This document shows, one piece after another, positions 27,149 to 43,661 of a DNA stretch of 64,000 nucleotides. Made by a program: the position numbers and the translations under genes. How positions within the stretch are numbered: position 1 is the first letter of the stretch; every line of letters begins with the position of its first letter. This DNA comes from an uncultured Desulfurococcales archaeon (lineage in GTDB: Archaea; Thermoproteota; Thermoprotei_A; EX4484-217-1), in assembly GCA_964564025.1 (NCBI GenBank), contig CAZLZO010000006.1, forward strand, positions 585 to 64,584. The letters are read 5' to 3'. Below the pieces are notes generated by a model that made no database searches, was not told the origin of the DNA, and was given only the letters and a program-made list of their open reading frames with translations.

Positions 27149-28471
27149 ATGAAGGATATCGTTTACTATTCAATTGAAGAAGCATTTAAAATACACCATG
27201 TTAAAGGGAGAGAAATTATTGACTCTAGAGGTAGACCTACTGTTGAAGCTGAAGTTTCGACTGTAGGTGGTGGTGTGGGTGTAGCTGCAGTTCCCGCAGG
27301 TGCATCTAAGGGTAAATATGAAGCTTGGGAATTACGTGATGGTGATTCAAGATTTTTCGGATTAGGTGTTAGAAAAGCTGTTGAAAACATAAACAACGTT
27401 ATCTCCAAGGAAATAGTGGGTCTCGACTCAAGATACCAGAGGGAAATAGACAATAAAATGATTATTCTCGACGGAACACCTAATAAGTCAAGATTAGGGG
27501 CAAACGCTATATTAGCTGTTTCAATAGCTACAGCTAAAGCTGCAGCAGACACTTACGGATTACCCTTATTTAAATATCTTGGAGGGTATCTAGCTAGAAC
27601 ATTACCTACACCGTTTCTAAACATAATTAATGGAGGTAAGCACGCTGGGAATAAACTTAGTATACAAGAGTTCATGATTGTTCCGGGAGAAGCGGATAGT
27701 TTTTCAGAAGCTCTAAGAGTGGCTTGCGAAGTCTACTATAAACTTAGGGATTATCTTAAGGAGAAACATGGTTTACAAGCAATTAACGTAGGTGATGAAG
27801 GAGGTTTTGCTCCGCCAATGTCCGAAACTAGAGAGGCCCTTGATGCTTTAATTAGAGCAATAAAAATAGCTGGTTACACCGAGGGTTCAGAGGTTGCTAT
27901 AGCACTTGATGCTGCTGCTTCAAGCTTCTATGATGAATTAAAAAGGAAATACTACATTGACGGTAAATATGTTGAACCAGATAAGCTATTAGAATATTAC
28001 TTAGAATTAGTTGAAGAATACCCCATAGTAAGCATTGAAGATCCTTTTCATGAAGACGATTTTAAGAGGTTCGCTGAGTTAACAAGGAAGATTAGTTCTA
28101 AAATACTTATAGTTGGTGATGACCTATTCGTAACGAACATTAATAGATTCAAGGAAGGAGTTTCTATGGGTGCAGCAAACTCCATACTTGTGAAGATGAA
28201 TCAAATAGGTACGTTAAGTGAAACATTAGATGTAATACACTACGCTATGCAAGCAGGCTATCAGCCCATAATAAGCCATAGAAGTGGTGAAACAGAAGAC
28301 ACGACAATATCGGACTTAGCTGTAGCTACAAATGCCGGAGCCATAAAAACTGGTGCACCTGCACGTGGTGAAAGAACAGCAAAGTACAATAGACTAATTA
28401 GGATAGAGGAGATACTAGGTAGTGAAGCAAAGTACGCTGGTTTCACAATATTTCCGAGAAAACCTAAATAA
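27149..28471 (+). CDS. eno: enolase
   Basis: IIDSRG.PTVE, GASKG, GDEGGFAP, SIEDPF, VGDDLF, SHRSGETED, IKTGAPARGER. Confidence 0.98.
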   Translation: MKDIVYYSIEEAFKIHHVKGREIIDSRGRPTVEAEVSTVGGGVGVAAVPAGASKGKYEAWELRDGDSRFFGLGVRKAVENINNVISKEIVGLDSRYQREIDNKMIILDGTPNKSRLGANAILAVSIATAKAAADTYGLPLFKYLGGYLARTLPTPFLNIINGGKHAGNKLSIQEFMIVPGEADSFSEALRVACEVYYKLRDYLKEKHGLQAINVGDEGGFAPPMSETREALDALIRAIKIAGYTEGSEVAIALDAAASSFYDELKRKYYIDGKYVEPDKLLEYYLELVEEYPIVSIEDPFHEDDFKRFAELTRKISSKILIVGDDLFVTNINRFKEGVSMGAANSILVKMNQIGTLSETLDVIHYAMQAGYQPIISHRSGETEDTTISDLAVATNAGAIKTGAPARGERTAKYNRLIRIEEILGSEAKYAGFTIFPRKPK

Positions 28472-28481
28472 TGAAGTTTAA

Positions 28482-28539
28482 TGCGATGATGAAGGTTAAA
28501 AGCGAGGAAAATCAGTGTCTGGAACCAGGCTTCTGAGCA
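28482..28539 (+). ncRNA. C/D box guide sRNA, predicted target tRNA-Lys(UUU)
   Basis: C AUGAUGA (28486-28492), guide AGGUUAAAAGC, degenerate D'/C', guide CUGGAACCAGGCUU, D CUGA (28533-28536), terminal UGC/GCA stem. Confidence 0.8.
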
Positions 28540-28616
28540 AAACATAATTTAAATTAAGTAAAAAACGCAATTAACTCTTTAGCTTTAAGCCTAAAACTCT
28601 CTATTTTTATCTTAGT

Positions 28617-29297
28617 TTACTTCGGCGGTGTTGGTAAGCTAGCGCTTTCACCAGAAGGTACTCCTGTCAATGGTAGTTCAGGGAATCTCTCTTTCATTCT
28701 TTGCTCAGCTATTATTGATGCTTCTTCAAGTATTTTCTTAGCTTCACCACTAACTACCGTAGTGTCTATGGCTGTTCCAGTAAATTCTCCTGCTTCTAGA
28801 ACTATTGAGTGAAGCATTGTATCGACTTCGTCGAGCTCGAAAGCGATTTCGGGAACTATTCCTTTTAGATGCTGCTTAATATCTTTAATTACTTCAACTA
28901 TAGGTGCCATAGTTACAAGAACATCTCCTAGTTCTCTAACAGTCTCTAACCTAAGTGCTACTTGTTCAAGAGCTAGCTGTGCTCTAAGAACAGTTTTAGC
29001 TATTTTTCTAACTTCAGCTACTTCATTAGCGTATATTGCTGCTCTAGCACTATCCTTCATCATGTGAGCTGAAACAACTTTTTCAAACAGCATCTTATCT
29101 CTTTCCTGAAGCTTATTGAATAAGTGTTCTAAGCGATTTACCTGTATTTTTACTTTATAAAGTGCCATAGCTAACTTGTATCTCATTGGCGGTGGTGGAT
29201 GAATTATTCTCGCTAACCTCTCCTTAACCGATGGCTTAGAGCTGTCATCCCAGTCCTTCACAAACTTTTCAAGTCTAGATGGCATGCTGTTTACCAC
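28617..29297 (-). CDS. ESCRT-III (Snf7) protein, CdvB1/B2-like paralog without winged helix
   Basis: ARAAIYANEVAEVRK.AK, LEQVALRLETV, C-terminal MIM2-like FPELP. Confidence 0.9.
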   Translation of the reverse strand: MVNSMPSRLEKFVKDWDDSSKPSVKERLARIIHPPPPMRYKLAMALYKVKIQVNRLEHLFNKLQERDKMLFEKVVSAHMMKDSARAAIYANEVAEVRKIAKTVLRAQLALEQVALRLETVRELGDVLVTMAPIVEVIKDIKQHLKGIVPEIAFELDEVDTMLHSIVLEAGEFTGTAIDTTVVSGEAKKILEEASIIAEQRMKERFPELPLTGVPSGESASLPTPPK

Positions 29298-43587: not shown

Positions 43588-43661
43588 AAGGTCAGTGCCG
43601 CTGAAGGCTCATCAAGCCCCCAACCCCTAAGGGCATCAGGGTGAAGGGGTTCATCATTCCC
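43588..43661 (-). ncRNA. C/D box guide sRNA with internal hairpin insertion
   Basis: C AUGAUGA (43657-43651), guide ACCCCUUCACC, D' CUGA (43639-43636), 21-nt GC-rich spacer, C' UGAUGA (43614-43609), guide GCCUUCAGCGGCA, D CUGA (43595-43592); TATA-like CTTTAAG about 30 nt upstream. Confidence 0.92.

Follow-up and report, generated by a model that had tools for sequence, protein, structure and literature searches.

The window analysed here, a 64,000-nucleotide stretch of contig CAZLZO010000006.1, comes from an uncultured archaeon of hydrothermal sediment whose genome is assembled in 147 contigs (1.96 Mb, 36% G+C) and which shares its class with Sulfolobus acidocaldarius and Ignicoccus hospitalis. 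Within this window the enolase gene (eno), recognized by the Pfam domains Enolase_N and Enolase_C, converges on an open reading frame (ORF) of the ESCRT-III type, which matches PDB entry 9s97 ('Cell division protein B2') with an E value of 3e-64 and the NCBIfam model CdvB1/B2 with an E value of 6.5e-81, the latter under the equivalog cut-off of that model. These profile and structure matches bear out the initial annotation, which had placed a small RNA between convergent eno and ESCRT-III genes (Table 1). A gap of 10 nt separates the eno stop codon from this RNA. A 94-aa ORF that runs antisense to the 3' end of eno and overlaps the RNA has no Pfam match and is probably spurious, and ARAGORN found no tRNA gene within the window.

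Judged by its sequence, the segment between the two genes encodes a box C/D methylation-guide sRNA, which we infer to be expressed in the host. In full it reads UGC-G-AUGAUGA-AGGUUAAAAGCG-AGGA-AAAUCA-GUGUCUG-GAACCAGGCUU-CUGA-GCA, which is the standard archaeal layout of a C box, a D'-like tetramer, a short loop, a C'-like heptamer and a D box. The C and D boxes lie near the ends, next to a short terminal stem of 3 bp (UGC/GCA) that is separated from the C box by the unpaired G28485, and homologs have a stem of 3-4 bp at the same place in other letters. Two guides of about 12 nt (spacers of 12 nt for the D' guide and 11-12 nt for the D guide) and an overall length within the range of 50-70 nt likewise agree with archaeal C/D sRNAs, and each guide can form at least nine contiguous Watson-Crick pairs with a stable RNA, the N+5 position included (10 bp at U34 and 9 bp at C17 of tRNAs). 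The sequence of the segment is as first described. No significant competing fold was detected for the segment (z -0.43), as expected for a guide RNA. The host encodes fibrillarin, Nop5 and L7Ae-family proteins, and the fibrillarin and Nop5 genes are adjacent on contig C7. Taken alone, the sRNA of the window is an ordinary, well-behaved gene of a sort missed by annotation pipelines.

Table 1. Coordinates of the features at the eno-sRNA locus (positions in the window) and of tRNA genes paired by the guides
Feature	Position	Strand	Remarks
Enolase gene (eno)	27149-28471	+	ORF end includes the stop codon
94-aa ORF	28261-28545	-	antisense to the eno 3' end, overlaps the sRNA
Box C/D sRNA	28482-28539	+	58 nt overall
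Terminal stem, 5' half, UGC	28482-28484	+	pairs with GCA at 28537-28539
C box, AUGAUGA	28486-28492	+	consensus RUGAUGA
D' guide, AGGUUAAAAGCG	28493-28504	+	12-nt spacer; GGUUAAAAGC is 28494-28503
D' box, AGGA	28505-28508	+	degenerate; consensus CUGA
D'-C' spacer, AAAUCA	28509-28514	+	varies in length and sequence among homologs
C' box, GUGUCUG	28515-28521	+	degenerate; alignment A1
D guide, GAACCAGGCUU	28522-28532	+	AACCAGGCU at 28523-28531 pairs with D loop AGCCUGGUU
D box, CUGA	28533-28536	+	invariant in alignment A1
Terminal stem, 3' half, GCA	28537-28539	+	pairs with 28482-28484
CdvB1/B2-type ESCRT-III ORF	28617-29297	-	convergent with eno
Host tRNA-Lys(UUU) gene	G000:C16:12436-12512		
CAU-anticodon tRNA paired 9 bp by the D guide	contig C91		

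A DNA search anchored on the 3' end of eno covered the fetched eno loci of 30 relatives, 24 of which contained the sRNA; in Ignicoccus-type genomes it lies away from eno. The conserved synteny and the 10-nt gap suggest that the sRNA is released from the eno transcript; eno, its conserved syntenic neighbour, is probably also its co-transcription partner, and processing of the common transcript probably frees the sRNA from its 3' end.

Conservation and distribution of the sRNA family

Sequences of the sRNA and its homologs, 23 in all, were collected in an alignment (A1), from which a covariance model (R1) was built. R1 finds exactly one copy in 131 of the 151 genomes of the class (127 of 133 when genomes of good quality are counted), with no copy in families f3 and f9, and nothing in 105 genomes of the phylum outside the class. 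In the host genome it gives one match (57.6 bits, E 1.4e-15), which shows the arrangement that marks the family, namely a C box, then a single nucleotide and the invariant GGUUAAAAGC, present once per genome. The weakest R1 matches that were fetched all carry the exact ten-letter guide right after the C box (20 of 20), and GGUUAAAAGC is unchanged in all 51 copies read. Invariant columns of A1 are UGAUGA, GGUUAAAAGC and CUGA plus five isolated columns; the nucleotide before GGUUAAAAGC, the D' and C' boxes, the spacer between them and the D guide vary.

This variation bears on the register of the D' guide, since the D' and C' boxes of the window are both degenerate and the homologous columns are canonical in other families. 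An exact CUGA after the guide plus 1 nt occurs in 18 of the 151 class genomes, with 0 control matches, and the D' column elsewhere reads CUGA, AUGA, GUGA, AAGA or CUUA in other families; the AGGA of the window retains the terminal GA. The proposal that AGGA is the D' box is therefore strengthened by its homologs, and the canonical CUGA in these sequences puts the N+5 nucleotide opposite U34 throughout the sRNA family, in keeping with the Um34 that the initial annotation had derived from the D+5 rule. On this comparison, the question of the degenerate D' register is largely settled. The C' box GUGUCUG aligns with AUGACUG in the sister genus and with GAUGAUGA in S. acidocaldarius, and throughout the genus a U stands in place of the A of its first GA, so that formation of the internal K-loop is uncertain here; this K-loop would be needed for D'-guide activity and may be weak in the genus. 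The D'-C' spacer has gained 8 extra nt in two genomes of the same genus and hairpin insertions in other families. GC-rich perfect hairpins of 6-11 bp stand between D' and C' in two genomes (G051 and G021) and in family f7 (loci L011, L012, L074 and L080-L082), and these resemble the structured D'-C' spacer noted by the initial annotation for another sRNA of the window, at 43588-43661.

Beyond the class, a pattern search located the same guide in a Thermoproteus-like genus belonging to another class, where it stands next to the D box (loci L157-L159; genomes G237, G195 and G244). There the order is C box, GCCAGGCUG-type guide, D', C', GGUUAAAAGCG and CUGA, with an CCAGGCUG-type guide in the D' position, and Tte-sR106 of T. 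tenax has the same layout. The two guides have swapped places yet stayed together, which could reflect permutation of a circularised sRNA or recombination between the guides. The occurrence of the guide in the D position in another class indicates that it is conserved independently of its context, and the family offers a clean example of a guide whose letters are all retained across a class while around it the boxes, the spacer and the partner guide change, as does even its own place in the sRNA.

Members of this family have already been catalogued. Additional file 1 of Dennis et al. 2015 (BMC Genomics 16:632, PMC4644070) lists Sac-sR26, IHOsR154 (Iho-sR154) and TtesR106 (Tte-sR106), with 5170, 1360 and 169892 RNA-seq reads, respectively; that study compiled rRNA targets only, noted tRNA complementarities as 'not compiled' and gives no target for these three homologs. 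Sac-sR26 is letter-identical to the homolog in G035, its listed coordinate (1175549, minus strand) being one base beyond the R1 match, by which G035 is identified as S. acidocaldarius, and IHOsR154 matches G048. All three share the C box and the GGUUAAAAGCG guide with the window, and Sac-sR26 is likewise located downstream of eno. Differences are found in the remaining parts: the CCAGGCUU of the window's D guide is replaced by CCUCUACCU in Sulfolobaceae, Sulfolobus has a canonical C' with CUUA as D' whereas both boxes are degenerate in the window, and the guides of the T. tenax sRNA are in swapped positions. The window sRNA is the ortholog of S. acidocaldarius Sac-sR26 and I. hospitalis sR154, and it is a further member of an already catalogued family. 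In Rfam, the window has no match at gathering thresholds. At a relaxed threshold RF01152 (sR1) scores 21 bits with the window and 31-48.7 bits with Sulfolobaceae homologs; membership of the window was rejected, its score being below the gathering score of 45 bits and the model consensus having different guides, and the likeness is one of box layout and spacing only, that is, of generic C/D architecture. The literature on 'sR26' that we found concerns only like-named Pyrococcus and Pyrobaculum RNAs, and a full-text search for the guide and target strings returned unrelated primers only. In the literature searched, neither a published target for Sac-sR26 nor an assignment of tRNA-Lys U34 as a guide target was found, and nothing relevant turned up on archaeal RiboMeth-seq of tRNA, although an earlier target assignment is possible in older sources, such as the older subscription papers and snoRNAdb.

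Pairing of the two guides with tRNAs

The anticodon arm of the host tRNA-Lys(UUU) is GCGGG-CUUUUAA-CCCGU, and its segment G31-C40, GCUUUUAACC, is a perfect 10-bp Watson-Crick complement of GGUUAAAAGC. The complementarity to positions 31-40 that had been noticed for guide 1 is therefore exact in the host gene itself, and the ten invariant nucleotides of the family are exactly those that pair with G31-C40. A28500, the N+5 nucleotide, which is the fifth upstream of AGGA, faces U34. Among the host tRNAs this is the sole pairing of at least 9 bp, and no pairing of at least 8 bp across the N+5 site was found with the 16S and 23S rRNA of four relatives (G004, G007, G051 and G035), which were used because rRNA models run on the metagenome-assembled genome (MAG) of the host found no assembled rRNA. 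When the D' guide was shuffled 5000 times and compared with a target set of ~10 kb of tRNA and rRNA, 0.7% of the shuffles reached 10 bp across N+5 (P = 0.007). The anticodon arm was invariant in 30 of 30 tRNA-Lys(UUU) genes from the loci of relatives. With neither guide nor target varying, compensatory changes that could prove the pairing do not occur; their being frozen together is nevertheless, at the level of sequence, strong evidence of constraint. The comparative evidence for this half of the interpretation is good and the reading well supported, the methylation itself being predicted: the D' guide probably directs methylation to U34 of tRNA-Lys(UUU), with Um34 as the predicted product.

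The second guide presents a different picture. The 12-nt stretch that precedes the D box reads GGAACCAGGCUU, with G28528 as the N+5 nucleotide, opposite C17, and the stretch 28523-28531 complements AGCCUGGUU, the D-loop segment A14-U20a. The initial annotation had assigned this guide, too, to tRNA-Lys(UUU), as complementary to a typical archaeal D loop with methylation of a C at about position 17. The part concerning C17 of a typical D loop stands; the assignment to tRNA-Lys(UUU) does not, for the D loop of the host tRNA-Lys(UUU) is AGCCAGGUA and AGCCUGGUU is absent from this tRNA. The A at 17a leaves 4 + 3 bp around an A-A mismatch beside the target nucleotide (N+6), so the two guides do not both fit it. 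Other host tRNAs pair better with the D guide: 9 bp with C17 as the site are formed with tRNA-Lys(CUU), tRNA-Ile(GAU) and a tRNA with a CAU anticodon, 8 bp with tRNA-Ser(GCU) and 7 bp with many others. A 9-bp match was reached by 7% of the shuffles of this guide (P ~0.07), which is not significant alone; the match is short and falls on a motif common to many tRNAs.

Comparison among relatives gives further indications. The D-guide core CCAGGCUU is kept in families f1, f2, f4 and f5 and in part of f6, and the variants found among homologs are CCAGGCUU, CCUGGCUU, CUAGGC, CCAAGC and CCUCUACCU. The D loop AGCCAGGUA of tRNA-Lys(UUU) recurs in all six other genomes of the host family, and the D guide has no match to the tRNA-Lys(UUU) D loop in f1, f5 and most of f4. 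The G051 guide pairs 10 bp, including one G-U, with tRNA-Lys(UUU), and with tRNA-Lys(CUU) the D guide forms 9 bp in G042 and 8 bp in G041. In S. acidocaldarius, Sac-sR26 forms 8 bp through its D guide with two D arms, those of tRNA-Lys(UUU) and tRNA-Trp, at U20. A D guide ACCUGGCUU, noted together with the same Lys guide in another genome, would fit AGCCAGGU loops, so that in some lineages this guide may change along with the D loop. Because it does not track the tRNA-Lys(UUU) loop across relatives, we read it as a D-loop guide with several tRNA targets and candidate Cm17 activity, a reading supported by the conservation of CCAGGCUU and by its staying with the Lys guide when the two are swapped; we hold this assignment tentatively.

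Sites in rRNA were considered for the D guide and set aside. In the 23S rRNA of G004, a 9-bp match is confined to an AT-rich insertion that other 23S rRNAs lack; only N+5 to N+12, the 5' part of the guide, take part in the 8-bp match to CUGGUUCC, a conserved 23S sequence; and an 11-bp match (10 Watson-Crick pairs) between the variant D guide of G051 and its own 23S rRNA falls at a site that is not complementary in G004 and is possibly due to chance.

Proposed action of the sRNA and alternative readings

Taking these observations together, we propose that the RNA acts as an sRNP whose D' guide directs methylation of U34 in tRNA-Lys(UUU) and whose D guide is directed at C17 of other tRNAs; we consider this overall explanation likely. 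Once released from the eno transcript, the sRNA would bind L7Ae at its C/D k-turn and, with less certainty, at its C'/D' K-loop, after which Nop5 and fibrillarin would be recruited. The D' guide would invade the anticodon stem-loop of tRNA-Lys(UUU) and pair with G31-C40, placing the ribose of U34, five nucleotides from D', at the fibrillarin site for methylation of its 2'-OH; the product would be Um34, whose base may in addition be thiolated or modified at C5 (s2Um or xm5Um type). The D guide would pair through CCAGGCUU with the common D-loop sequence AGCCUGGU(U) and methylate C17, the targets in the host being tRNA-Lys(CUU), tRNA-Ile(GAU) and a CAU tRNA and not tRNA-Lys(UUU). A 2'-O-methyl group on U34 favours the C3'-endo sugar, and general tRNA chemistry suggests that such a methyl would stiffen the weakly stacking UUU anticodon at high temperature. 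The anticodon stack of tRNA-Lys(UUU) is, to our knowledge, weaker than that of any other tRNA, and this tRNA relies on wobble modification in every domain.

Related systems lend this proposal a context. For S. acidocaldarius tRNAs, Wolff et al. 2020 (PMC7668247) report wobble Um34 and s2Um34 that C/D guides make or are predicted to make; they observed methylation of U34 and G18 in tRNA-Gln, for which Lowe's snoRNAdb predicted C/D guidance, and tRNA-Lys was outside their analysis. Lui et al. 2018 (PMC6009581) describe Pyrobaculum wobble guides for Trp, Gln, Val and Thr, with Lys not listed; sR27 is directed at U34 of Gln and sR46 at U34 of Thr. Like the predicted S. acidocaldarius sRNA for tRNA-Gln(UUG) (Um34 and Gm18), sR27 and sR46, the window sRNA would direct ribose methylation of a wobble U through a C/D guide laid across the anticodon loop. 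The second guide of the tRNA-Gln(UUG) sRNA, however, is aimed at the D loop of the same tRNA, whereas that of the window misfits tRNA-Lys(UUU). Position 34 is also methylated by a fibrillarin sRNP in the case of the tRNA-Trp intron C/D guide (Cm34 and Um39) and of Haloferax sR-tMet, as cited in PMC7994747; these guides are intron-encoded or euryarchaeal and have C34 as the target, whereas the window sRNA is a stand-alone gene downstream of eno. In the literature searched, no report was found of the U34 modification state of tRNA-Lys(UUU) in this class.

Other explanations may be weighed against this proposal. If the eno-cdvB intergenic spacer contained no RNA gene and the motif had arisen there by chance, the missing Rfam match at the gathering score would be understood, as would the outcome of a search for RNA runs with this locus, which listed none, but conservation as a single copy in 131 of 151 genomes effectively refutes this view, and the published expression of homologs and the R1 score of the window leave it a negligible probability. 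A second possibility is that both guides serve one tRNA-Lys(UUU), yielding Um34 and Cm17 on the same molecule. The D guides of Sac-sR26 and G051, with their 8 and 10 bp to tRNA-Lys(UUU), point in this direction; the loop AGCCAGGUA in the host and six further family genomes, where the N+6 A-A mismatch leaves no helix of at least 6 bp, and the missing match in most other lineages make the dual-site arrangement very improbable. The D guide might instead have no tRNA target, being an orphan or directed at rRNA or another RNA, so that only the D' guide methylates. This would agree with the 9-bp D-loop match, which is not significant alone, with the 8-bp match to CUGGUUCC in conserved 23S rRNA and with the finding that ~80% of tRNA-targeting Pyrobaculum sRNAs have one target-less guide (PMC6009581). 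It is hard to reconcile with the conservation of CCAGGCUU over at least five families and its accompanying the Lys guide even after the swap, and neither 23S match helps it, one relying on letters that vary between families and the other confined to the insertion in G004; we regard this alternative as somewhat unlikely.

The last alternative concerns the D' guide. In vitro, the D'-guide activity of archaeal sRNPs depends on the C'/D' motif, and in all genomes of the genus the C' box is without the GA of the sheared pairs. The degenerate C'/D' pair might therefore no longer bind L7Ae, so that only the D guide would be active and the D' guide would be a conserved relic or a pairing chaperone only. 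Two features oppose such a half-active guide: the D' box retains its terminal GA, and no letter of the D' guide differs within the genus (100% conservation), although the adjacent spacer has gained 8 nt and the eno flank has fallen to 82-85% identity. This reading thus seems to us distinctly unlikely, and we infer that the C'/D' pair of the window retains activity.

If the proposed guidance of Um34 is correct, the guide would be the source of part of the s2Um and xm5Um that have long been found in bulk thermophile tRNA, Um34 of tRNA-Lys would be a class-wide RNA-guided decoding adaptation, and a set of tRNAs for codons starting with A would gain Nm17 in the D loop through the partner guide. 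The broader suggestion, that the ten-nucleotide guide has been fixed in hyperthermophilic Thermoproteota since ancient times, on a single-copy sRNA in nearly all genomes of one class and in the D position in a second class, and that its role is to methylate the wobble ribose of tRNA-Lys(UUU), appears to us evenly balanced. Should Um34 be guided in nearly all archaea of the Sulfolobales/Desulfurococcales type, the catalogued Sac-sR26 would be assigned a function, and a specific, testable modification would be predicted in S. acidocaldarius, a genetically tractable model.

Minor observations on Sulfolobus guides and on tRNA and rRNA genes

In S. acidocaldarius tRNAs, position 17 (C or A) carries a methyl, most probably 2'-O (PMC7668247). 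The D' guide GCUUCCAGGCU of another catalogued sRNA of this species, Sac-sR102 (PMC4644070), has a 10-nt complement in the tRNA-Ala D arm AGCCUGGAAG, and Sac-sR102 is, by this complementarity, a candidate guide for the position-17 methyl of Wolff et al. 2020; the Sulfolobus D-loop guide may perhaps have moved to it. The D guide of Sac-sR26 also forms 9 bp with the intron of the S. acidocaldarius pre-tRNA-Lys(CUU) (G035:C1:607121-607222), which may be chance or a hint of a role on the precursor.

Among the tRNA genes of the host, the locus G000:C4:8732-9029 (L032, outside the window) is a tRNA-Lys(CUU) gene with two introns, of 31 nt at 30/31 and 189 nt at 37/38, and folds as a canonical tRNA-Lys(CUU) once spliced; the ARAGORN call of tRNA-Phe(aaa) with a 222-nt intron at this locus is a miscall, as two-intron splicing gives tRNA-Lys(CUU). 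The segment G000:C24:20397-20571 is probably a tRNA-Ile(GAU) gene with a long intron at 30/31, cut by the contig end and missed by ARAGORN. In the same family, the 23S gene of G004 (G004:C8:25189-28900, ~3.7 kb) contains AT-rich insertions absent from two other 23S genes, which are presumably introns.
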